From NCBI RefSeq assembly GCF_964204645.1, contig NC_134026.1:30848150-30912149 (forward strand): a stretch of DNA of 64,000 bases. The letters run 5' to 3'. Position numbers and translations under genes: made by a program. The DNA comes from Tubulanus polymorphus (Eukaryota > Animalia > Nemertea). Below the pieces are notes generated by a model that did not search any database, was not told the origin of the DNA, and saw only the letters and a list, made by a program, of their open reading frames with translations. Positions 4,626 to 63,761 of the stretch are shown here, piece by piece. Positions within the stretch are counted from its first letter, which is position 1, and the number at the start of each line of letters is the position of its first letter.

Positions 4626-7600
4626 TTATTTTCCGCGTGATGCACCAAGTCGTCGTCCGAACATGGATCTAGCGCGACAAGTACAAGCGACCGGCAATCG
4701 AATCCACTCGTGTTTGTAAAGATAATGTCCCTCGATGCACGTCCTCTTCAGTACCCGGAAGTTGTAATAAACTACTGAACATCCTTTGAATATGGATCTG
4801 ATACCTTTACAGCGCTCACAACTGCAAACGGCAATCGCTAACACGGCCGGGACACGGTTTGGATCGTGGTGAAGCTCGTAATACCATGGACACAACGATT
4901 GATCATTCTCATCGTTACGTTTGCCAGTATTTTCACAAGATCGTCTGCCCAAATATGTTATATTACTGTAATCGCTAGGATTGATAACGGCCGGGTTAAA
5001 ATTGTCCGATAATCGGATGAAGTATTCGTGCTGTTCGCGAATCTTTTGAAGTACGTTGTTCAAATTAGCCGGTTCTTTGCAGTTATTGGACGATTGCGTG
5101 CCTTCGATCAACAACCAATGGTTATCGGTTGCTAATAGATATACTAATATAATCCAGTGTATCCGGCTCAAATTCACCTGAAAATATACATAATGATGAT
5201 CATGTAATATGGAATTCATAATGCTAATGACTAAGTTTAGGTATTTTAGTCACGCAGTTGATGATCTATTGTTTCAATTTACCACAATGACAGCCAAGGG
5301 AGCTAAAGCAACTGATCACAGTTTCAGAACAGTATAATCAGTTAAAGAATTCTTGAGGATGGCTACAAAAATTGGTCGGCACCGGCCAATCCGGTAAACC
5401 ACTCTTTAGCCGAGGTAGATTTTACGATTGCATTTATTTTGGTGAGACTTTCCATTTTCCCTGATTCTTAGCTAAGACCCAACGCTACTGAGGTCCCTGA
5501 TTCTCAACTCGGTGAAATATTCGCAGCCGTCCCATCGCTACCGAGTTCCCTGATTCTCAACTCGGTGAAATATTCGCAGCCGTCCCATCGCTACCGAGTT
5601 CCCTGATTCTCAACTCGGTGAAATATTCGCAGCCGTCCCATCGCTACCGAGTTCCCTGATTGTCATCTTAGTGAAATATTTACAGCAGTCCCAACGCTAC
5701 ACCGCATAACGTGCCCCAAAGCTGTCCAGGCCGAGGGATACAGCGTGGAGGCTGAGATATAGTGCAGGATCCTGGCTGAAGGGGTACAGGTTCCATCGAG
5801 ATCGATACCTGTTGTACGTTGAGGTGATCTCGATGAAATATCAATCGCAAATTCATTTTTTATTTTCAAATTTCATTGAGCGAAATGTGTTTCTACTTGC
5901 AACATCAGAGAGACCGTTATGATCTGCCAGGAAGAGTAATCTTTCAAGGTCATAGACAAATGATTTAGTCGAGACGATGAGACGTATTATTTACAAAAAA
6001 AAAAACATCAACGGATTAGTAACTAGTCACACAGATTCACTCATCTGAGTCTCACACGCTCTGTAATCCGATTAGAACCTCCCTCGATAAGTGTTTATAG
6101 TAAGCTCTATCTTCTCTACTGTTGAAAATCCCTGATGCAACGAGAAGAGTTGGCGACCTTTTACAATTTGCGATAATTTTTCTCTTGTTTTCGAACAGTT
6201 TCTAAGAAATCTTCAATGAAAGATTGAAGACATTCGTCTTATCACCGAAATGCAATTTACTTCTACAAAACTTTGACATTTATTTCCCAATGGAAATACG
6301 AACAAAAAAATTATCAATCAATGAAAAAATTTCGTTTTTCTTCTAACGCAACGAGCGTCTTGTTATGAGAAGAAGAAAAGAAAAAGAGAGAAAGAAAAAA
6401 CCAAAAGGTTGAAAACGAAATTCATTTTCTAAAAAAAAAAAATTAAATGACACAATATACAATTTTACAAGACTAAATTTATTTATCAAAAGTTTGAATT
6501 GAAATAAAAGACAACTGTGTTTTTAATCGTTTTAGATTTGTATATAATAGGTTTGAATGTTAGCTCTCCGCATCGGTTTGGCTATTTTACCAATAAAAGT
6601 ATCAATAAGTTAAAAACTAACAACCTAAAACTTTTTTAGACATGTTTCACTTTTTTTTCAAAAATAGATTTCGTTTTTAATGTTTTGATTTTGTATAATA
6701 GTTGGGTTATTTCTGATCGCGATGGACTCAGCTAATTTTCACGGTTACTCGTTGAACTTTTAAAATAGATGCGACAGAAATTGATACTCTCGTTGAGAAC
6801 ACAAAAAGGTCGGTTGTGAGTAAACGGATAACTACAGAGGAAAGTAGATGCTTCAACTCCCACTCTGACATTATAACAATATATGTCAAGGTCGTAGAGA
6901 GAGAGAGAGAGAAAGCGAGTGAACGGGAGTAGGTTCAGAGCGTCACCGTACCATGACGACGGTGACCTCGGTTCGTTTCAGATTACACTGCGGAAAACTT
7001 ATCAGACGGATCAAATTTGAAACGGGTCTTTCTGTTCGATTCGGTTGATTTAAATATAGCAATCCCTACGGTATTGTATTACATGTATATACGAGAGAAT
7101 AAACGACACTTTGTGGTGGTTGGGGGCAGCCGTACGAGGTGCGCCATCAATAACAACTTGTGAATCTGAGAAAGGTTTTGAACAATAAGATTCTTTTTCT
7201 AGAAAATTGACCTTTTCGAAACATTTCTCGTTCGACCCGCTCAGCGCCATTCAGATGATCGGTAGTAGGTCAGATATTCATTTTCCCCACAACCCAACGA
7301 GCCAAACTCAGGGCATTATCAATCAGCACATTCGAAGTTTCTTTTTCAATTTCTAAATTTCCCTCAATCCGCTGAGAGCTACTTTGAGGTTTCCCTTCCC
7401 CTCAACCATGGACTCTAAAAACGATGTAGACCAGTGTCTCAAACCCACTGAGCGCCACTCATGGCATACTTAGGAGGTTCAAGAGGTTACGGAATGAGGG
7501 GAGAGAGGTCATATAGAAGAACATCTACCACAGGACCAACGATTCAAACCCACCAATCCACGACTGATGAGACCACACAGACTGCGGATAATCTTTCTTG

Positions 7601-32256: not shown

Positions 32257-33125
32257 TTAATGAGTTCGCCTGCGTTTAACTAATTCATATTTGCCTTTAA
32301 AGGCCCCTTCAACGTCGCGGAGCATTTTAATAGGATCATTATACTCGATGTTTCTTGACCAACCAGGGCCGCGCGCGATGAGCTCGACAGCGGGGGAAGG
32401 TGGTGGCCCCGCTGGAGCGCCCGATGTCGATGCCTGGGCGGGCGTATTATTATTTTCATAATCATCATCACTTTCTTCATCTTCAAGTCTTCTTTTTCTA
32501 TTTCTTGTATTATTTGATCTAGTTGTCGAAGTTGTAGTAGTACTAGTCGCAGTTGAAGTAGGTGGTCGTGGTCGTCTTTTCTTAGTAGTGGTAGTAGTGG
32601 TAGTAGTAGTAGAATTAGTAGTAGTTGCAGGTGGTTGTCGTGGTCGTCGTGGTGGTCTAATATCATCGCGAGGTGGTGGTGTTGCGGGCCCTGGTGGTGG
32701 CGCTCCAGGAGTGGCGAATTCCTCCTCATCACTGCTCTCCTCCTCAAAATTTGGTTGTGGAAGTGGGGGAGGACGAGCTGCACGTTTGCCTTTTTTTTTT
32801 GATTTCGGACGCCCCGTACCTTCTGTATAATCTATTTCTTTTGTATTACGACGGGGCGACCGACGCAGTGAAGGCGTCTGAAGCTGTGGCGCCTCTGTCG
32901 GGGTCACCACTGCAGGGGCGACCTCCTGCTCCACATTTACGGGAGAAGCAGGGTCCACCTCCTGCAAAGGAACCAACTCAAATGGTGGAATTATTTTAGG
33001 AGGAGTTGGCTCCTTAGGCCCGCAGATATTTGCAACGCACCTTTTGTAAACGTTTTTCAATCCCGGAAGTGCTCTGCGGGCTGCTTCAGACTGGTCTTTC
33101 ATTATATTATCAATTATATCCAAAT
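32257..33125 (-). CDS. Terminal exon of an uncharacterised Pro/Arg/Thr-rich disordered protein, probably TE-borne
   Basis: 288 open codons, GC-richer than flanks; strong acceptor ttttttcattccag at 33126-33127; RRSPRR, GRPKSKKK and RNRKRR basic motifs; the upstream exon candidate ending at 33216 has stops in the required frame. Confidence 0.55.
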
Positions 33126-34582
33126 CTGGAATGAAAAAAAAAAAACATTAAGGATCATGCATATTACACATAAATGACATGTTCGCATATAATTATCATA
33201 TTTGTAAATAGTAACCTATAAAATAATGCAGTTATCCAATAGTTGAATGTGATGTGATGGAAAAAACGAAGAGAGTTGGGTAAGAAGGGTCATTTGAACG
33301 TTTGGAAGCGATCGTAAGCTTATTTTGCGAGAAGTGATCATGTCACTGGTTGTACGATACGGTTGTACAACTAACTCCGTTGTAACTACACTTTTAACCC
33401 CTTTCATGATTTGCATCATCCATTACATAATAACGATAAGTCGACAGTATATTATCAGTGAGGCTGATGATTGAATCTTTCGATACACATTTTATGTCTT
33501 ATATACTTACATATTTCAGAACCAACCCTGTATGTGGACGGGTACACTTTTGTTAATCCATTAATGGAACTACTGATTGTAATAAATTACATCCTACCAT
33601 TACCTTGACAATCAATTTTGGTAGCAAATCATGAATCAAAAATACACTTGATTTTTTTCTGGGGTGATGATGTACCAGGTTCCAGGTGACAAAAACTATA
33701 CATTATAATGAATGGAATTGTTACCCATGACCCTGGTTTCAAAATCTGGGAACCTCTTTGGAATAACACGCATGATAACTTTTCATTTATCAACCAATTG
33801 AAGTGGAAACTTTGCAACGATAAAAGATCTAATTTAAAACAACAGACGTCGCGCTGTATCAACAAAAAATTAATTGATAATTCCTTTTATTCAGTAATTA
33901 CTTTTCAAATGGACGAGTGAAAAATGAGTCCAAACTTCAGAAATGTATTCAATTATTTTGTAGAACACTTTTTACTTGCATACAGGGCCACACTCCATCC
34001 ACGGTAAGTGGGAGAACTTGCATTTCATTTCCTCTGAACATGAGGCAAGTGTGTACATATTATATTTTCTTCTGAATTTTCTCAAAAATGAAGATAAAAA
34101 TATGACTGATTTTTTTTTATTTTATTGTTTAAACTATTTACAGCATGAATTAAAACAGAAAAACGACACAAATAATTTCACTTCGCTGAATCTAAAACCA
34201 GTAAAAACCATTTCACACAACACTGCCCATACTGCACCTTCAGAAACAACACTCGCTACAAATATAATACATTCATTTTGAAGAACAATATTTCACTATC
34301 AACATAAATGGCTGTAATTTATTTTTCCCAATAGAATATTCATTGTCAGCAATAGGCCTATCGGTACTCCACATATTCATTACATAACTCACCTAGAATG
34401 TATAATTCATCGTACAGCAGCCATTCATTTATTCAGATCAACAAAATTCCATGCACAGCCATTTCAGCTGATATTCACCATACAGTAGCCTCCGCCTAAA
34501 CTGCTACAGTTGCACCGGGTTTGTAAGAATTGCAAAAATCAATTGATGAAAAGATTTATTGAGCCTAATAGCGGTCAAAATT

Positions 34583-42566: not shown

Positions 42567-42750
42567 GCATGCGGATGCAGTATTTTCTATAGCAGGCTGT
42601 GGCATGCGGATGCAGTATTTTCTATAGCAGGCTGTGGCATGCGTATGCGGTATTTTCTATAGCAGGCTGTGGCATGCGTATGCAGTATTTTCTATAGCAG
42701 GCTGTGGCATGCGTATGCGGTATTTTCTATAGCAGGCTGTGGCATGCGTA
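42567..42750. repeat. 35-bp tandem repeat, about 5 copies, each with an acceptor-like ttttctatagcag
   Basis: Unit gcatgcggatgcagtattttctatagcaggctgtg. Confidence 0.93.
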
Positions 42751-42843
42751 TCTAATACAGCATACTGTACGATGATTATTCTATATATTTTTAGGAGCTG
42801 TTCCCATGACGATGACATTGTTGTGAAGGTTGATATCGTAACA

Positions 42844-45800
42844 ATGCGAGGTCATTGTTGCTACGTGTCGAGGAAGACTTTACGCTCAGTCGCTGCGCTG
42901 GTTATAACCGCGATATTGTTCATAAACGTTATAGCGTTTAACCGCAGTTTGAAATATGAAACGGTTCATCCTGACTACGAGATCAGTCGACGTTGGACCG
43001 ACAATAAAAAACTATTCCCAGTCGCGGTGCCGGCTGCGGCTAGTGACCACTCTGTGATAACGGATACTGTTGTTCGAACTGCTCCGGCTGAAACTATTCG
43101 ACCTACGAAGATGCTCGTAATCGTGAATAACGTTCCGATATCGATGCCGTATTCAGATTTATTGAACGTAACGTCCACAAATTTAACGACGTTGAAAACA
43201 GCCATTCGGACCATCAACGAAAAACAGTTCATTTTTAATAAACACATGTTGGATTCAAAGTTCGCGAATAATTCGGACAGCGTCGCGATTCTCGTACAGG
43301 TTCACAATCGAGCGGCGTATTTACGACACCTCGTACGCTCACTCGCCAGGGCAAGAGGAATCGAGAATACGCTCGTTATTTTCAGCCACGATTATTATTC
43401 GCCTGAATTGAACGCCATCACTGAATCGATCGGAGCATTCCCAGTAAGTATTCACTGAATCGATCGGAGCATTCCCAGTAAGTATTCACTGAATCGATCG
43501 GAGCATTCCCAGTAAGTATTCACTGAATCGATCGGAGCATTCCCAGTAAGTATTCACTGAATCGATCGGAGCATTCCCAGTAAGTATTCACTGAATCGAT
43601 CGGAGCATTCCCAGTAAGTATTCGAATCCCTGCCAGGAATCAAACACAGCATTCTTTGTAAGTTTCACGGCAGGGATTCGAACCTGATAGCATCGTTACA
43701 CTCGGCTACAACACAAACCCCTGTCACACTGGACCGAGTGCGCAGGTACAGCTTTGCCGCACAAAAACTTGCGGCACCAATCAGATTGCTCGTTGTATAA
43801 TCGCTGAGGTAAATGTCATGGAACAACTACCGGTATAAATGGGAAAAACCCAGGCTAAAATGAAACGGGATATCTGATTGGCTAATAATGACATCATCTA
43901 AGCTGCACGCTCGGTCTAGTGTGATAGGGTTTTGTACTGTGACAATCTCGATGCCATCAGGTTCGAATCCTGGGGAGGATGGTTTTACGGTATCTAATGG
44001 AGCATTCCCAATAGTACATGTAATATTATCTGATTAGTTTTGAATTGTTCACTGATGCTATAATCTGTTGATAGCTTTTATGAAAATGATGGTGTTTTTA
44101 AACCAGTTTTTGCTGCGCGAAGTCAATGAGAATGTGTTTGTTTTTCTGATTCAGGTTTTGCAGATTTTCTATCCGAAGTCGATGCAACTTTACCCGCGTG
44201 TATTTCCCGGGGAAGATCCCAATGATTGTCCTCGTAATTTACCCAGAAAAAAGTGAGTTTTTACTCGCGAAATCAATGATATTCTCAAATGTTAAATCCA
44301 TATCAATGAATGACTGAGACAATAAATCAGGATTTTACATCCTGGACAGATCCTGGACAGACCGTAAATAATATCACAATCAGGATTAAGTGTTTTGGTC
44401 TATAATTGTATGTGTAAATGTTAAGTTGTTTTAATTGTGTGTATTTTCTAGAGCTGCGATAAAACGTTGTAATAACGCCGGGTATCCGGATAGATACGGA
44501 CATTACAGGGAGGCAAAATATACACAAACCAAACATCACTGGTTCTGGAAGGTAACGTTGGAATCTGAACTCAATTAACCGGGTTTCTGCGACTCCAGGG
44601 TCCGATCTAAGGAATAAGAACCACTCGCCCGGGGGGGCAAGCATATCTGAAATTTTACTTACCCCCTCAAAAATCTACTTGCCCTACATAAGCAGTCCAA
44701 CTGTTGTATCGATTGGCAAAAAGCTTTGAGACAGAATTGCACTAGCCCGGGGGACAAGTGATAATGATAACCTACTTGCCCTTATGATAATATACTTGTC
44801 CCAGGCAATCAGTGCTTAGATCGGACCCTGCGACTCTTTTGGCTGAGAGTCGAAATATCAATATAAATCCATCATTCACAGAATCCTACCTGATGATGCT
44901 GAATTAATTGTTTTCTAGATGAATCGTGTGTTCGGTAACCTTCACATCATGAAAGATTTTCAAGGTCACTTGCTTTTGTTAGAAGAAGATCATTTTGTAG
45001 CTGAGGATTTTTTACATGTGTTAAATTTACTTAAAAATCATCGCGACAGGTAAAAAAAACACGCTTCGTTTTATTGTGCGATCACGTCCAGTCAATCACT
45101 TTCTTACCTTATTCCAAATGGTTTTTATTCGAAATTAAGAAATTGTTTTTCTTATTCTTATCTGTACGATACAGTGGATTACGCTCGTATTTATTATAAA
45201 ACGTTTATCTAATTTCATTTGGTGCGCAATACAGTTAACCATACCTAACTCTGACTAGCCGGGACCAGCAAGAAGCAAGGTCCTAAGATCGGAATTCGAA
45301 TTAGTCAAAAGTCTCCGAGTTGACGATGACTGAGTAAAACAAGGTTTACCGTATTGTGTTTATGCTGAACTGTAATGGATATCTCCTGTATGATATAATA
45401 TAAGCGTAGTTGATTGTATCGCGATGATTCCTTCAATCCCAATCATATAGGAAATTATTTGATTTCAGATGAATGTAATTATTGTGGTGAGCATTCTAAT
45501 CTTCTATCGGTACCTTCTTATTCTCTTATAGATATTGTAAAATATGTCAAATTGTTGATATATTTTCAAAGCTTACGTATTTGCTACTTCGGTGGTGAAG
45601 AACTATGTGAATTGTGATGTCGGAGATTGGGACAGCAATATGTATTATATATGTGTTAATAGATATGGCTTGGTTGAAAGATATTTCTGCATTTTTTTCA
45701 CAGCTCAACTCCTAAATCTTCATAAATTACTGGGCAGCAACATCTAGTTCAGGGTGGCCACTTACTTACCTGTGAATCTGGGAAAATTCGGGGAAATTTC

Positions 45801-54357: not shown

Positions 54358-54598
54358 TAAATCGAGAATCCCCCCCCCAAACTAAACGGAAAAGATGAAG
54401 TCCAAAAAGCTAATTCCTTAAAGCTAATAATTGATTGAATCGACGTTGCGACTATAACCTAATAGTCATCTGCCTCAGGAATACTGTATTCCCGAGGAAG
54501 ATGACTACTCGGTTATAGTCGAAACATCGATTCAATTAATTGCTTTAAGGAAACCTTTCGGAATTCATCTTTGTCGTTAGTGTGGAATTCTTGATTTA
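54358..54598. mobile_element. Degenerate Penelope-like inverted pLTR with decayed hammerhead core
   Basis: Imperfect about 120-bp arms centred at about 54485; gaagatgacta...tagtcgaaac resembles family A. Confidence 0.65.
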
Positions 54599-54788
54599 TC
54601 GCCAAAACACTGAAATGGCGTTTCATCAATGGACATAATACTGGAACCCGGGACCCAGTTTCATGAGAAAAAGTTTAACTCAAATTTCCTGTTTGATTGC
54701 TATAGGTTATTTCATGTTTTCATTGATAGCAGCAAATTCAAATTTAACCGTTTTCATGGGACACCGGACTCTGGTGATCACGGGTTCA

Positions 54789-57700
54789 TTATTGCAGCTT
54801 TTTCAGATCATTTTTGCTCGGGAAATACCAGTAAGATCCGGTGACACATTTAGTAAGTCTCATTACGTCATCGCAATGACCACCGTCTGCACCAGATCCA
54901 ACCATTCTATCCAACATATAGTCGAAATTCTCCGGAGATTCGGCGTAGGCGATAAAAAACAAACCAGCTTCACCACTGAGACTTCCATAAGGCATCGATT
55001 GTCTAACTATCTCAAAACGTTTTTTCTGCTCAAAATTATTACCTATAAAATATATGTATACAGAAAAATGCATTTAAACAACACGAAGATTTATAACTGA
55101 CAATTAGTTGAAAATTGGGATGTCTCGTGTGGGACGCTAACCAGAACGGGCTGCTGGGTCAGAGAATATCAATGTTTTAATCGTCCCCCAAACTCCCGGT
55201 AATGCGCCTCTGAACCTGAGAGCGGTTCATAAAACAGCACGTGGCCCCCATTTAGCAGTTTAGCTTCAGTTCAGTTTAGTTTAGTTCCTCCACGAGCATT
55301 TGGCTACGGTCCTTTTCTTTTCAAAAATGTGGTCACACTATTTGGTTCATCGTAGTGTGACGTATTCGTGGCTCATTGTAAATTGTACGCACGATTTAAT
55401 CATATCGTAATAGGTGGCAGATTAGTTCTGACTGGCTCTCACACCCTCGCTCCCTCTCCCTTCACCCCCTCTTCCTCATCTCCTACTCCCTCCTCTCAAT
55501 GAAGTGAATGGTCCAGCATCTTACCCCCAGTCATCCGTCCCAGATGAGATGTTATTGACTTTCTCCTCAATTCGATACTATCAGGTTTAGATCTACCGAC
55601 CCACTGTTCCATCTTATCACCCGCTACAGCAAAAAAAACAAAACAAATATCATTACATATATATATACGTATTGATATGAATTAGTGATATTTCAAAATG
55701 ATATTCTTGATATTGAAAATGTGTCCAAACCTGAATTGATAACGTCAAATTGATGGATCCATTTCTGAGTAATGACGTAACTGGCACCGGTAGATTTTTC
55801 AACGGTTACAGATTGCCTGTGTTCTTCATCAGCTGGGTTCTCCGTACCTGAGCAGTATATAAACGAGCAGTTTTCATATCCCAAGCTCCCGATTTCAATT
55901 ATAGGCGATTTAATTTTTTGTCATCTTTGAAGCAACAAATATGGCATCGTTTTTTGTTGTTGATCTAAAACAACCGTATGCAATCAAAACTGATCACAGA
56001 CTATAGAACCATCATAATCTTACTGGTCTATTGAGCTCAGACTGGTTGCAATTGGCTGCTTGGGTTGGGGTTTTACATCCAATTTCATTCGACCAAGAAA
56101 CTCTGCCAACACCACCAGGGCCCGGATTTATAGGCTGGTATCATTCTTAACCCGGGGGCTAACTCAATTGAAAACGAATTAAGTTAACAAAGGTAATACT
56201 ACCAGTCTATAAAACGGGGCCCAGGATTCGGATACATTCAACCCTGGATTGGTCGAGGGATACTTACCATCGATAAATCCTGATAAATCGCGACCGTTTT
56301 TATAAACGAAACTATAAACATCTTCGAATTGTTTCACGGCTCCGGGTGGAAATTGTTTCAGAATAATTTGAGTTAATTCGAATAAATTGCTGTATGTATC
56401 AGATTTAGCGTGTATGAATATATCACCACCAGTGCTGGGTAAATCTCCTAACGCACCCTTTCTGTGCGCGTAATTAAACTCTTTCTCTGTTTTTCCGGCC
56501 ACCTACAAACAGAACGATAATTCAAATGCGTACAGTAATGATACGTATAATTCTGGAATATTTGTCATTTATTGCTTCCCGGGGACCAATTCCCAACCAC
56601 TCGCTCGAATCTGTGTTAGATCCCTATTTCAAGAATAGCTGTACATCAATGATAGGAACATGGGGAAACAATAAAAACATTTTCGGACTTTAAGATAAAA
56701 TCCCACTATTTACAGATTAAAAGAATTTAAAAACAAGAATTTATTTATTAAATCTAAAATATCTAAAAGACACGACGTTTCGATCTCACCCTAGAGATCA
56801 TCGTCAGAGATCATCGTCACCTGACGATGATCTCTAGGGTGAGATCGAAACGTCGTGTCTTTTAAATATTTTAGATTTAATAAATAAATTCTTGTTTTTA
56901 AATTCTTTTAATCTGTAAATAGTGGGATTTTATCTTATTATCCGTTCACCACGTTTGAGTGTGGTTATCGTTCTATTTTCGGACTTTATTTTTTCATCAT
57001 ATTATTGTTGGATTGCCTCTATATCATAGGAGGGCACAGACACTGGGTTGGTCATTGATACTGTTTTCATTCATTCACTGTAAGATGGTCACATTGGTTT
57101 CAACATCTTTGAAGTTGACTAATGAAGTGTTTCTATAACGGGATCCTAATCTAAATTCATTTCTAAAATATTATATAAAATTCTAAACTTCATTTACTTT
57201 TCGATAAAAGTCCGGACCGAATCCGACTCCGGCTAAAATCTCTTCCTCGTCATCGCGATCTTTAGGAGGTACCACGTGATCCACGTAACGCTGTAGATTG
57301 GCTGCAATCTTAGCGCACGTTTGGACGTTAGCGTTTGAATTCAAATGAATCCATATATAAACGGCATGCTTCTTCGTCTCAGAATAAACCTGTCGATATA
57401 ACGAAAGACATACATTAATTCAATCAATCTAAATATAAATTGCAGAAGTATTTCAAGCAGATACCAGTTTTTGTATTGTTCGTTCTTATCTGGTCGATTT
57501 ATTACCTTAAGGCTTTAGGGAATCAGATTGTGTGTATCAATTTTCAATACGGGATATCGACAAATTCAAGTTCTTGAATTACTCGTTTGATGGCGCTAGT
57601 CAGAACCGGAAATTGGAACCTAAATCCGCCATGTTCTAGTTCATTTGCAATAAAAATCTCTCGCTTCAAGTTTTTAGTTAGCGATATTTTACTTACTATA

Positions 57701-58891
57701 CATAGGCACGTATAATCCTTTACGTATGATATCTTGGCAATGTGTTGAATTCGATAAAACCTCACTTTGAACGCTAAAGATCACTAGAAATGTGAAAAAA
57801 CTACCAAAAATCACAAATTTAGCGATGACGCTCGAAGCAGCTAACGGAAGTAATGACTGGTGCCGGGTGTCATCGCTTTGTTGTTGAGTTCAAGACTCTA
57901 AGGTGAATTCATTGCAGGCTACACTGATAAATATGAAATCATATTACGAAATGAAATTGATGTTAGAAGGAGTACACCCGTAGATTCATAATAAAAATAT
58001 GAAAAGTACCAGGACTCGAACCAACAATCGAAATTGGGCCGTCAAGTGCTGCCACCATGTAATACCTGGCAACCAGTCTTTACATCTTCAGCCGTTGCAA
58101 AATGTTTTTTGATAATTTTAGGACACTTATAGTGATTTTTAGCCTTTGCAGTGAGGTTTTATCATATCCAACGTAGCGGTAGGATAACATATTTAAAGGA
58201 TTATGCGTAATGATGTATAGTAAATAAAATATCGCTCATTGAAAACTTGAAGCGAGAGATTTTCATTGCAAATGAACTAGAGCATGGAGGATTTAGGTTC
58301 AAATTTCCGGTTCTGACTAGCGCCATCAAACGAGTAATTCAAGAACGTGAATTTGTCGATATCCCGTATTGAAAGAGATTTTCTTAAGTGAAGATTGATA
58401 ATAAAGGTTCTGAAATTGCATCCGATGGAAATGACAAATTTCGGGACCCCGAGATTATCTTGGGATTCTGGAACACCCATGTCCTAAATCCCAGACCCTG
58501 TTGGTTCACGCTATAGTTGCCCTACTGAGAGCCCTGATTGTAGACACCTACACTCGGTTGACTTTCCGGAACATTAGCCGCCTTCACAACAGGAACAGTT
58601 ACAACATCGTCACGCAGTATTGGCAGGATATTTTTCGCTGCGTAGATTCCTAATCCAGATGCAGCCAGTACAGCTCCGCCAGTAACAACCTTCTTATACA
58701 GCGACGAGCGTACGGTAGACCCAGCCCCGTGGATACCACGAACTATAACACCGAATCAGGAGAGCTTTAATTAGAATATACCACGATCCGCTTTTTCAAG
58801 CGCTATAGCAGAAATACCAACCTCCATTTTTGTTGAAGGAACACGATCTGATTCTGCCTAGGATCCGTTCGATACCCCCTCGTACTGCCAT
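54789..58891 (-). CDS. Dye-decolorizing peroxidase (DyP, YfeX/DyP-B-like), 385 aa, with N-terminal presequence and TM segment
   Basis: Exons 58891-58822, 58742-58552, 57389-57198, 56502-56268, 55847-55731, 55623-55525, 55042-54789 join in frame; GRDLSGFIDGTENP, QKWIH, VGRSK, SHLGR (proximal His), IVRQSMPYG, GLFFIAY, TGSYWYFPS. Confidence 0.93.
56691..56974. mobile_element. Penelope-like inverted pLTR element (family B) with hammerhead ribozyme cores
   Basis: 117-bp arms 56691-56807/56821-56937 (1 mismatch seen), 37-nt tail 56938-56974, TSD attttcggactt (56679-56690, 56975-56986). Confidence 0.88.
56818..56857 (+). ncRNA. Minimal type I hammerhead ribozyme (mirror copy on minus strand about 56771-56807)
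   Basis: cac-CTGACGA-T-GATCTC(tagggt)GAGATC-GAAAC-GTC-gtg. Confidence 0.8.
57542..58374. mobile_element. Foldback-type element with over 300-bp TIRs in DyP intron 2
   Basis: tttcaatacgggatatcgacaaattca... is inverted relative to ...tgaatttgtcgatatcccgtattgaaa; identity decays inward. Confidence 0.85.
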
Positions 58892-59317
58892 GATTCCGGT
58901 TTACACACACACTCACACGACCGGTTTTTAAAACGAGTCCTATAGATTACAGTGTACTTAAAATAAGTCCTTCAAAATTACCCTATTTATTTATCACTGT
59001 TTGCGCAGTATAGATATAATGCTGTATTACACTTGCAGCGCTAGCGGTATACGATACTGACGCGTCATGAATAGCTAGACCTGTATTCAACAGATTGTTC
59101 ATTAAAAAAACCATAGAACACAAGTATAAAGTATGCCATGAATTCATTACATATCGTTTTGAATGTTTCTTATTGTGTAAGATACTTCACTGAATATATA
59201 TTATATATATATATCAATCTGCGGCCAGCAAAACCTCAATACTACCCTCTCAACCTGGACTTTACAACCTCACTGCCTGAACGTTGTACGCCTTCAGCAG
59301 CCTGGATGCTGCACTCA

Positions 59318-60087
59318 ACCTGGACCCTACACCCCTGAGACTGGACCCTGCACCCCTGAGACTGGACCCTGCACCCCTGAGACTGGACCCTGCACCCCTG
59401 AGACTGGACCCTACACCCCTGAGACTGGACCCTAGCTGCATCCATGAGACTGGACCCTGCACCCTACACCCCTGAGACTGGACCCTGCACCCTACACCCC
59501 TGAGACTGGACCCTGCACCCTAGACCCCTGAGACTGGACCCTGTACCCTGAGACTGGACCCTACACCCCTGAGACTGGACCCTGCATCCATGAGACTGGA
59601 CCCTGCATCCATGAGACTGGACCCTGCACCCCTGAGACTGGACCCTGCACCCCTGAGACTGGACCCTGCACCCCTGAGACTGGACCCTGCACCCTACACC
59701 CCTGAGACTGGACCCTGCACCCTACACCCCTGAGACTGGACCCTGCACCCTAGACCCCTGAGACTGGACCCTGTACCCTGAGACTGGACCCTACACCCCT
59801 GAGACTGGACCCTGCATCCATGAGACTAGACCCTGCATCCATGAGACTGGACCCTGCACCCCTGAGACTGGACCCTGCACCCATGAGACTGGACCCTGCA
59901 TCCATGAGACTGGACCCTGCACCCCTGAGACTGGACCCTGCATCCATGAGACTGGACCCTGCGCCCTACACCCCTGAGACTGGACCCTGCACCCTACACC
60001 CCTGAGACTGGACCCTGTACCCTGAGACTGGACCCTGCATCCATGAGACTGGACCCTACACCCTGCATCCATGAGACTGGACCCTGC
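59318..60087. repeat. 21-bp (and 28-bp variant) minisatellite
   Basis: Unit ccctgagactggaccctgcac; explains the LRLDPAP-type ORFs. Confidence 0.95.
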
Positions 60088-60494: not shown

Positions 60495-60940
60495 TAGATT
60501 TAAGACCAGCGCAAGCTTAGCTTAGGACCAGTTTAAGTCCATTTTGGTTCTATAGCCAATCTAACAACTTAGGACTAGTTTAAGCTCAATTTGGTTCTAT
60601 AGCCAATCTAACAACTTAAGACCAGTTTAAGCTCAATTTGGTTCTATAGCCAATCTAACAACTTAAGACCAGTCTAAGTCCATTTTGGTTCTATAGCCAA
60701 TCTAACAACTTAAGACCAGTTTAAGTCCATTTTGGTTCTATAGCCAATCTAACAACTAAAGACCAGTCTAAGTCCATTTTGGTTCTATAGCCAATCTAAA
60801 AACTTAAGACCATTCTAAGTCCATTTTGGTTCTATAGCCAATCTAACAACTTAAGACCAGTCTAAGTCCATTTTGGTTCTATAGCCAATCTAACAACTTA
60901 AGACCAGTCTAAGTCCATTTTGGTTCTATAGCCAATCTAG
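60495..60940. repeat. 47-bp tandem repeat, about 9 copies, derived from the Harbinger MITE interior
   Basis: Unit tagccaatctaacaacttaagaccagtctaagtccattttggttcta resembles 36065-36105. Confidence 0.9.
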
Positions 60941-62075: not shown

Positions 62076-63761
62076 TTAGATGTCGAATGAAGGATAAGAA
62101 TTAATGTTTTGTAAAAATACGACTTGCGGAGGAGAATCATTTGAATAAGCACCAAAATGATTTGAATTGTTATCAAGTGCATCCATTTCGAATGCTTCAT
62201 TATCATACGCTCCACTATCCCGCGAGTCTACAGGAGAATCGACAGTAGATTCTACTGTAGATTCTACAGATGGGTTTACAGTAGAATCTACAGGAGAATC
62301 CGGCTCATTACGAATCGGTGATTCAGCATGATTTTGGACGGTGTTCGGACGATCCGTAATTTCTGATTCGTGTGGATCTTCATCTAATCTATCGACACTA
62401 GAGAACCTCCTGCGATCCAGCCCTCCGCGCTCCAGCCCTCCTCGAGACACCGTCGACGAGCTGGCGCGTTCAGTTTGCTCTAGAGCTGATAATGAAACAG
62501 CTCTATTAAGTCGGGCAGCAGCTGCTGCTGATGCTGCTGCAGCTGCGTTGTGAGTCGCGGTTGTCGATGGTAAATGTTGTAGTGAAACGGTGCGACTCAG
62601 ATCGAGGAGAGGTAACGGATTATTCGCGACCGGTTGAAGGCTCAAAGTCGATTCACCGAGGTTTGTATTTATCGTATCTGTACTGGTAACGTCGCAGTTT
62701 ACGACTCCCGAGTCCGAATCATCTTTCGGTCGAGTTCGCGATAATCTGATCGTTGAATTCTCCTCCTCTAGTTGAGCGACTGCGTCCTCGTATGACGGTA
62801 TATCTATCTGACTGGCGGCCATCGCGTCGTCGTAGCTCGGCGGTAAATCCAAATCGTATAAACTAACCGGCCGCGCCACCTGTTGACCGTTACTCAAAAC
62901 ATCCGGTAAATACGCGTTATTGATAACGGCGCTGTACGGAGGAGGTTGTAACGTGATCGGTGCCCGCAGATTATCACCGTTCGATGCATTGTTACGCGTT
63001 GCCGCGGCGCTGTTGACCCCGGAGATCGCGGCTATCTGCGTGAATCTCTGATCAGCTTCCCTCGCTCGACGCAGCTTCCTTTGACGACAGATGCAGCCGA
63101 TTATCGTGTTGACGACGATGATGAAAATGACGATCGCGAAAACGACGCCGATTATTACACTTACATTCAACGAACCTAAAAACAACAAAATACATCGTTT
63201 TAAGACTCAGTTTCCGTTTAGAATGAGTTTGAGGAATCAACGAGTCGTAGGGACCCCGTACTGTTAATAGGTGGCGCTTCTCACTACATACGTAATATGT
63301 ATATCTTAAGTACAGTCCAACTGGCTGAAGTAGTCTTAATACTTAAGTGTCTCTACTCGTAATTCTAATTCAATTTCACTGTGTAAGTCATTATTTGGAT
63401 AAGTGATCAACACGATGATCAAACTATGACGACTCGTCTCAAGCTCAGGTTTTAGCGTATTACAATTTGCAGGGTTCATAAAGGTCATGGAATTGAAAAT
63501 GTCAAAAACCGGGTCAGAAATTGAATTTTCATTGTGCAGTATTTTGTTCTTCAGTCCCTAAACGCCGTACAGCATAATCAATAGCATAGGGTCCAGTTTC
63601 ACAATATCGATTTCAATTTTTAAACTTACCTCCTCCGCAAGAAGAATAACTGTTCTCATCTGAATTATCTAAACAATCATTTCTACCGTCACATCTCTGG
63701 CTATACAACACACAAAACTGTCCATTTCGACATTTCCATTTATCAGACGAACAAGTGACAG
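62076..63761 (-). CDS. 3' part of an LDL-receptor class A domain single-pass membrane protein with PPxY motifs (LDLRAD3/4-like architecture)
   Basis: Exon 63761-63630 (CSSDKWKCRNGQFCV...RCDGRNDCLDNSDE, phase 1-1) plus exon 63175-62076 (TM VIIGVVFAIVIFIIVVNTIIGCIC, PPPY, PPSY); 5' exons lie beyond the window. Confidence 0.88.

Follow-up and report, generated by a model that had tools for sequence, protein, structure and literature searches.

A class B DyP-type peroxidase of the nemertean Tubulanus polymorphus with a conserved leader pointing to the mitochondrial intermembrane space

Introduction

Where may an animal DyP-type peroxidase reside, and what may it do there, if its catalytic domain is preceded by a long leader, first basic and then hydrophobic? 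The question is raised by a gene on the minus strand of a 64,000-nt stretch of Tubulanus polymorphus DNA (NCBI RefSeq assembly GCF_964204645.1, contig NC_134026.1, positions 30,848,150 to 30,912,149 of the forward strand), hereafter the window, to which all positions refer. The gene, a class B DyP, is already annotated; its conserved leader, judged from sequence, points to an apparently unreported variant of the family sited in the mitochondrial intermembrane space (IMS). The reading favored here, held with moderate confidence, is that the protein is imported into mitochondria, released as a soluble product of ~34 kDa into the IMS, and reduces H2O2 there. Taken separately, location in the IMS is quite probable and, given that location, removal of peroxide by the enzyme is highly probable.

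Gene structure and expression

The gene has seven exons, an open frame of 385 codons, and six GT-AG introns which measure, from the first to the sixth, 79, 1162, 695, 420, 107 and 482 nt (Table 1). A contig of 1,508 nt from run X3 matches the locus with 0 mismatches and skips exactly the six introns, introns 1 and 2 included. Run X3 is taken as RNA because of these splice joints, its sole mark as such, the run search having flagged no run as RNA. The 5' end of the contig lies at 58999, 108 nt ahead of the initiator ATG, and a scan of 58999-58891 found no ATG upstream of the start codon. Run X1 behaves as DNA over introns 1 and 2, which it crosses with no splice joints (compared on 57150-59250 only), and none were seen in runs X2 and X4 (same sample code). 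Run X5 had no match to the locus, which counts neither way. The product of 385 aa is identical to RefSeq isoform X1 of T. polymorphus (XP_074640929.1, here P0053), and the genome, queried once with exon 4 and once with PF20628, yielded this locus alone both times. The DyP gene is real, spliced, expressed and single-copy. Contamination or a pseudogene is ruled out by the spliced contig, the open frame and the placement of the protein among spiralian orthologues; the preliminary description, which had dismissed contamination on the strength of six spliceosomal introns, was right, as all six are joined in one contig. The same holds for the two 5' exons that it had placed outside the open reading frame track. 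It had left to cDNA whether exons 1 and 2 are transcribed, and the X3 contig contains both; they are real, though not new to public annotation, RefSeq isoform X1 having both already.

Family membership and catalytic residues

P0053 scores 150.6 bits with TIGR01413 (cut-off 100.5), and exceeds the cut-offs of the Pfam DyP models PF20628 (111.7 vs 20) and PF04261 (20.6 vs 20.4). The class A EfeB model TIGR01412 gave no match at E 0.01, no family other than DyP emerged from the profile scan, and the PF00141 domain is absent from the protein. The AlphaFold2 (AF2) model, with a mean pLDDT of 81.4, has a two-domain ferredoxin-like fold; its top Foldseek matches are class B DyPs (best 5de0, E 4e-27), and every row listed is a DyP. 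The GFIDG motif (226-230), His295 and Arg315 align with KpDyP, VcDyP and the peroxidase of PDB entry 9li4. Asp229, His295, Arg315 and Ser317 are each found in 108/108 close homologues with a whole domain, a set which includes one rhizarian and many rows without organism name. On profiles, fold and motifs, the T. polymorphus protein is assigned to class B DyPs with catalytic residues intact, and the YfeX-like domain complete with GxxDG, His and Arg of the preliminary description is borne out. By homology, heme b would sit on His295, and Asp229 and Arg315 would form compound I.

The solved class B enzymes YfeX (5gt2), KpDyP (6fks), VcDyP (5de0) and TyrA (2iiz) match with TM-scores of 0.83-0.89 by target at ~30-32% identity, and have the GxxDG Asp, the proximal His and the distal Arg in common with the T. 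polymorphus DyP. As in class B, the domain is compact (~300 residues), with YfeX, KpDyP and VcDyP nearest to it. However, these four enzymes are leaderless, while the T. polymorphus DyP has a leader of ~80 residues and an acidic loop. Class B proteins are described, in the available text of PMC8230527, as cytoplasmic and devoid of an N-terminal extension. Since a ~80-residue leader, transcribed and conserved, breaks this rule, the T. polymorphus DyP is a variant, not a typical class B member. Dictyostelium DyPA (7o9j) is a eukaryotic class B DyP too, but intronless, leaderless and cytoplasmic (same text).

The leader and its controls

Residues 1-41 include 6 Arg, 3 Lys, 1 Glu and 0 Asp (+9/-1), with a hydrophobic moment of 0.68, the presequence being judged by simple statistics. 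The most hydrophobic 19-residue windows of the whole protein all begin at residues 38-48, where the AF2 model has a helix (38-62) of low confidence. The hydrophobic stretch begins at residue 42 and is preceded by 9 basic residues; its best 15-mer has a Kyte-Doolittle (KD) value of 1.80, and 7/15 of its residues are Gly or Ala. The same architecture recurs among homologues. From 131 of them, 108 with a whole domain were retained, of which 89 start with Met and have a leader of at least 50 residues. Ahead of the hydrophobic stretch no more than one acidic residue is present in 86/89, and the net charge is +3 or more, again in 86/89. Median values for the stretch are residue 35 for its start and 1.7 for its KD, and an AA, CA or SA pair occurs in the ten residues preceding the domain in 81/89 leaders; the background of such pairs in 10-residue windows is 7% for the domain and 26% for the presequence. 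Conservation of the leader extends from Trichoplax to hemichordates.

Two proteins of the same genome served as controls. The leaders of CYC1 (cytochrome c1; KD 1.66, then VHAA) and CPOX (coproporphyrinogen oxidase; KD 2.07, then VYA) resemble the DyP leader in having a Gly/Ala-rich stretch followed by V-x-A, but the spacer from stretch to site is ~5 residues in both, and ~19 residues in DyP. In all three leaders V-x-A is presumably where the inner membrane peptidase (IMP) cuts. CPOX is located in the IMS. A matrix-type control, the GrpE-like N-terminus of the Pomacea model P0068, has a KD of only 0.63. Five of six signal-like controls contain 0-3 Gly+Ala and begin close to the N-terminus, the sixth being a partial model, and signal-peptide-like paralogues are Leu/Ile/Cys-rich at the N-terminus. 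The bipartite mitochondrial-type leader of the preliminary description is thus well supported by its conservation in 89 homologues and by the CYC1 and CPOX controls; from it we infer mitochondrial targeting.

Among the homologues, P0189, P0179, P0191 and P0183, one from Trichinella, carry Leu/Ile/Cys-rich, signal-peptide-like N-termini, likely reflecting a secondary switch to secretion. GxxDG is altered or missing in P0190, P0195, P0214, P0193, P0223, P0225 and P0231, the named ones from gastropods; several of these paralogues keep a mitochondrial-type leader, and may be pseudo-peroxidases. The Pomacea gene model P0068 apparently joins a GrpE-like protein and the DyP precursor, which is probably a mis-annotation of neighboring genes.

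Proposed location and maturation

In the model proposed, the basic presequence would engage TOM/TIM23, residues 42-59 would stop transfer at the inner membrane, IMP would cut after Ala78, and the product would be a soluble heme enzyme of 34.5 kDa reducing H2O2 in the IMS. IMP takes off the hydrophobic sorting signal and sets proteins free in the IMS (available text of PMC7050145). For the DyP, release by a cut after Ala78 is likelier than retention in anchored form. Of the inner-membrane or IMS heme peroxidase that had first been envisaged, the IMS half is supported, as a deduction from the leader, and membrane anchoring is the less likely state.

Yeast Ccp1, located in the IMS, is likewise a heme peroxidase with a bipartite leader. 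However, it belongs to the unrelated superfamily PF00141, and is matured by m-AAA and the rhomboid Pcp1 (PMC8847149, where accessible), in contrast with the DyP, whose leader matches that of the IMP substrate cytochrome c1. In the same source cytochrome c1 is an IMP substrate, and Ccp1 a rhomboid substrate. The sorting analogy drawn with Ccp1 in the preliminary description therefore holds for presequence and stop-transfer, but the route is likelier that of cytochrome c1 and IMP. Relative to class I cytochrome c peroxidase, the T. polymorphus DyP is at most a functional analogue.

Masses and isoelectric points computed for the Mytilus orthologue are 42.1 kDa and pI 8.86 for the precursor, 39.4 kDa and pI 6.92 after removal of 26 residues (presequence only), and 33.9 kDa and pI 6.03 after the V-x-A cut. 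A DyP spot identified by two peptides in mussel gill has 30.4 kDa and pI 6.00 (PMC5302490, as far as available). The spot fits the loss of the whole leader, and names no compartment.

Several points weigh against the proposed location. The peptides of the mussel spot were matched to Trichoplax, its mass is 3.5 kDa below prediction, and a leaderless isoform would fit equally. The 89 leaders are related, not independent trials, hence the counts measure conservation only, and 19/108 whole-domain rows were excluded from the survey for being incomplete, having a short leader or resembling signal peptides. A list of 946 mitochondrial proteins (PMC8134430, classified lists only) lacks the leader-bearing Naegleria gruberi protein XP_002676075, and the DyP term is missing from the 7 searchable supplements of the paper on the predicted mitoproteome of Andalucia. 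The literature searched yielded no localisation experiment. No bivalve mitochondrial proteome was evident among the matches listed. Finally, the N-terminal helix of EmDyP, the DyP of the tapeworm Echinococcus multilocularis, has been read by its authors as a secretion signal (bioRxiv 10.1101/2022.11.07.515413).

EmDyP deserves attention, being an animal member of the family already biochemically characterised; the earlier statement that DyPs are characterised mainly in bacteria and fungi has to be qualified to this extent. EmDyP binds heme, is active on DAB and luminol, has catalase activity and no RB19 activity, and is slightly induced by oxygen (same preprint). Compared by description, it resembles the T. 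polymorphus protein: both are animal members of DyP-B, carry an N-terminal helix, and come as a long and a short 5' isoform. Identity between a tapeworm orthologue and the T. polymorphus DyP is 45%. It differs in having been read as secreted plus cytoplasmic, mitochondrial targeting not being proposed. Should the leader be a secretory signal or a signal anchor, the DyP would be extracellular or luminal. The EmDyP preprint predicts a secreted long isoform, the Trichinella protein and trematode duplicates do bear Leu/Ile/Cys-rich N-terminal signals, and V-x-A is a general signal peptidase I pattern as well. Yet the stretch of the T. polymorphus DyP is set far from the N-terminus, behind the basic residues, and is Gly/Ala-rich unlike that of five of the six signal-like controls; the preprint gives no localisation, and a basic presequence, a stretch containing Gly and the site A-K-A are all found in the tapeworm orthologue P0188 as well. 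A secretory fate appears very improbable.

A mitochondrial protein might also be fully imported into the matrix, or stay uncut and anchored in the inner membrane. The modest hydrophobicity of the segment would agree with this, and peroxiredoxins show dual matrix/IMS sorting (PMC11626719, in the text available). However, the conserved Ala motif after the segment would be purposeless in the matrix, the matrix-type control is far less hydrophobic, and the pI of the mussel spot fits loss of the whole leader. Both outcomes together are considered improbable.

Lastly, the main product could be leaderless and cytosolic. RefSeq lists an isoform X2 of 300 aa, which begins with Met-Glu and continues into exon 3. 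Since the sole site matching its start, from exon 3 to the window end, is the end of exon 1, isoform X2 implies skipping of exon 2. No joint of exon 1 to exon 3 was found in the contigs even at a 1% share, though contigs drop rare forms. Isoform X2 may be a minor cytosolic form paralleling the short isoform of EmDyP, which also has long and short 5' splice forms, and its Met-Glu stands in good start context. That it should be the main product, and the long form minor, is nonetheless the least probable of the alternatives: exon 2 is present in the only spliced contig seen, the first ATG of the skip transcript, in strong context, opens a 26-codon frame, so that leaky scanning would be needed, and the leader has been kept across distant animals. 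Import, cleavage and release into the IMS remain the preferred reading.

In the literature searched, which most subscription journals lay outside, no paper proposing mitochondrial targeting of a DyP was found. A search combining DyP, peroxidase and mitochondrial targeting retrieved only PMC8230527, in whose available text the only mention of mitochondria is the title of a cited work. Tables of proteomics papers do list invertebrate DyPs (PMC11036304, PMC4926457 and PMC7006924, as far as their text was available).

Distribution and evolutionary origin

Named orthologues occur in Placozoa, Mollusca, Brachiopoda, Annelida, Bryozoa, Platyhelminthes, Priapulida and Hemichordata, and divergent ones in Acanthocephala and Trichinella. 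The best 120 of 274 matches, many of them unnamed rows, include no name from vertebrates, insects, fungi, sponges, cnidarians or choanoflagellates. A profile search of 1.84 billion representatives at E 0.001 gave 1,921 matches, the best 150 of which were listed. Trees were built on the catalytic domain without the leader for 73 chosen rows, with no root inferred; supports are SH-aLRT values from quick IQ-TREE searches with no bootstrap, and the outside rows include 5 named bacteria, the others being labelled by appearance. Animal rows form one group (SH-aLRT 99-100) within a group of 41 rows (98), which also hosts the rhizarian Lapot, the amoebozoan Echinamoeba, the heteroloboseans Naegleria and Willaertia, the labyrinthulomycete Mucochytrium, and unnamed rows. 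In this group 18/21 non-animal rows bear a leader that includes a hydrophobic stretch (one probably truncated, two fairly acidic), and 0/32 rows outside it have this architecture. The nearest sister of the animal group is a rhizarian transcriptome protein, not a holozoan one.

The leader-bearing DyP probably predates animals. When animals are constrained to join the 25-row group containing bacteria, the log-likelihood drops by 76 units (LG+G4; p = 0.008 in the approximately unbiased test), and direct transfer from a bacterium to an animal is rejected under that model. The comparison with bacterial DyPs called for in the preliminary description has gone against a bacterial affinity, animal DyPs grouping with leader-bearing protist proteins. 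Of the ancient horizontal transfer suggested there, the direct bacteria-to-animal version falls, and an old transfer between eukaryotes stands as a possibility. Two scenarios may account for the pattern: vertical inheritance since an early eukaryote, followed by many losses, or an old transfer between eukaryotes that preceded the split of placozoans. A transfer into Schistosoma from lower eukaryotes has been proposed (available text of PMC4420034); the spread across animal phyla argues against a transfer specific to flatworms.

Other DyPs met in the searches differ in their termini. P0221, P0227, P0234 and P0238, which are of eukaryote type, lack a leader and lie outside the mitochondrial group, have the C-terminal residues SRL, SKL, SKL and CKL, respectively. 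Naegleria XP_002669769, a near-identical relative, leaderless and ending in SRL, is in a published peroxisomal list (PMC8134430, lists only). All this suggests a peroxisomal DyP lineage. P0208 and P0277, relatives of the mitochondrial group, are without the leader and show near the N-terminus nonapeptides which we take to be PTS2-like motifs, suggesting retargeting to peroxisomes. In P0302 and P0257, of a different DyP clade, the N-terminus resembles a short presequence and a hydrophobic stretch is lacking; this may be matrix-type targeting that arose independently. In a group containing a labyrinthulomycete protein (P0216, P0267, P0241, P0279, P0236 and P0245) leaders are long, the His is kept in 6/6, and the catalytic Asp in only 1/6.

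Electron donor

Among possible donors, small molecules, or peroxide itself, have nearly an even chance; ferrocytochrome c is a tentative candidate, on the unlikely side, and porphyrinogens come slightly below it. Cytochrome c is suggested because of the proposed location, the lack of a PF00141 match, and the conserved acidic loop, which is net acidic by at least 3 in 102/108 close homologues. No class I peroxidase (CcP/APX, PF00141) was matched in the genome, a weak negative, since the exon-wise search with PF04261 missed the DyP gene too. Against cytochrome c, an acidic loop (net acidic by at least 3) is found in only 6/15 protist rows, and as a whole the domains of the outgroup are the more acidic ones (median -12 vs -5). 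Of the genome's own cytochrome c gene, exon 1 was recovered. The fuller hypothesis, an ancient eukaryotic mitochondrial DyP clade serving as the cytochrome c peroxidase of the invertebrate IMS, released by IMP and docking ferrocytochrome c on its acidic loop, is judged unlikely.

According to another view the protein would be a YfeX-like porphyrinogen oxidase acting in the IMS beside CPOX, either clearing pathway overflow or making porphyrin pigment. YfeX oxidises porphyrinogens (PMC3215433, in the text available), YfeX-type enzymes are the closest solved relatives, and with CPOX carrying the same leader type the substrate would share the compartment. But three exons of the genome match TIGR00562 in order, hence a conventional protoporphyrinogen oxidase (PPOX) gene is present and leaves no gap to fill; a role of the DyP as substitute for a missing PPOX is ruled out. 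Moreover, the term yfex is confined to bacterial papers among the matches listed for YfeX, mollusc, porphyrin and shell, and the DyP family also occurs in Trichoplax, parasitic flatworms and amoebae. This view is distinctly unlikely, and the pigment or porphyrin role raised at the outset found no support.

Features of the locus and of the window

The features of the DyP locus are collected in Table 1. The inverted-repeat elements in introns 2 and 3 are both MITE-like; in run X1 the depth over the intron 2 element is in the thousands, vs 41-45 alongside.

Table 1. Features of the DyP locus, in window positions
Feature	Positions	Strand	Evidence
5' UTR of exon 1, 108 nt, no upstream ATG	58892..58999	-	contig start, ATG scan
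Coding exon 1, residues 1-23, Arg-rich amphipathic presequence	58822..58891	-	
Met-Glu codons, start of RefSeq isoform X2 (last six bases of exon 1)	58827-58822	-	
Exon 2: presequence remainder, hydrophobic segment, linker, predicted cleavage site	58552..58742	-	contig
Gly/Ala/Val-rich hydrophobic segment, residues 42-59, predicted stop-transfer signal	58636..58689	-	
V-K-A-A (76-79), predicted IMP site, cut after Ala78	58576..58587	-	
Exon 3: start of DyP N-terminal domain	57198..57389	-	
Acidic loop in exon 3, residues 131-137	57260-57240	-	
Exon 4, closing with GFID (GxxDG motif); Asp229, 56271-56269	56268..56502	-	
Exon 5	55731..55847	-	
Exon 6, proximal His295 at 55546-55544	55525..55623	-	
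Exon 7: distal Arg315 (55004-55002), Ser317, stop codon	54789..55042	-	
3' UTR, to the end of the reach of the spliced contig	54547..54788	-	
Intron 2 element, high-copy, with terminal inverted repeats of 272 nt (85%), outside product	57542..58374	.	
High-copy hairpin element in intron 3, 124-nt arms (97%), outside product	56684..56944	.	

Tandem arrays of 21-nt and 47-nt units lie upstream of the DyP gene (59319-60087 and 60521-60939). Elsewhere, the window hosts an exon of the interleukin-17 family (4626-5249, minus strand; PF06083, E 1e-13) and the first coding exon of an MGAT2 glycosyltransferase (42733-43458, plus strand; PF05060). Two further frames are on the minus strand: one of 376 codons (62076-63206) with a transmembrane stretch, PPxY-like motifs and a weak CYYR1 match below cut-off, and one of 296 codons (32257-33147), Pro/Thr/basic and of low complexity, with no Pfam match.

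Significance

Peroxide removal in animal mitochondria is usually described via thiol enzymes, such as peroxiredoxins. If the proposed location is correct, a heme peroxidase in the IMS of molluscs, annelids, flatworms, hemichordates, priapulids and placozoans would be a missing component of invertebrate mitochondrial redox biology, of relevance, among others, to hypoxia-tolerant bivalves. Class B DyPs would gain a compartment not described in the papers found, and the published view of flatworm DyPs as secreted products of a lineage-specific transfer would be recast. Were cytochrome c the donor, the enzyme would spend electrons of the respiratory chain on H2O2, in a manner convergent with yeast Ccp1, in many invertebrate phyla.

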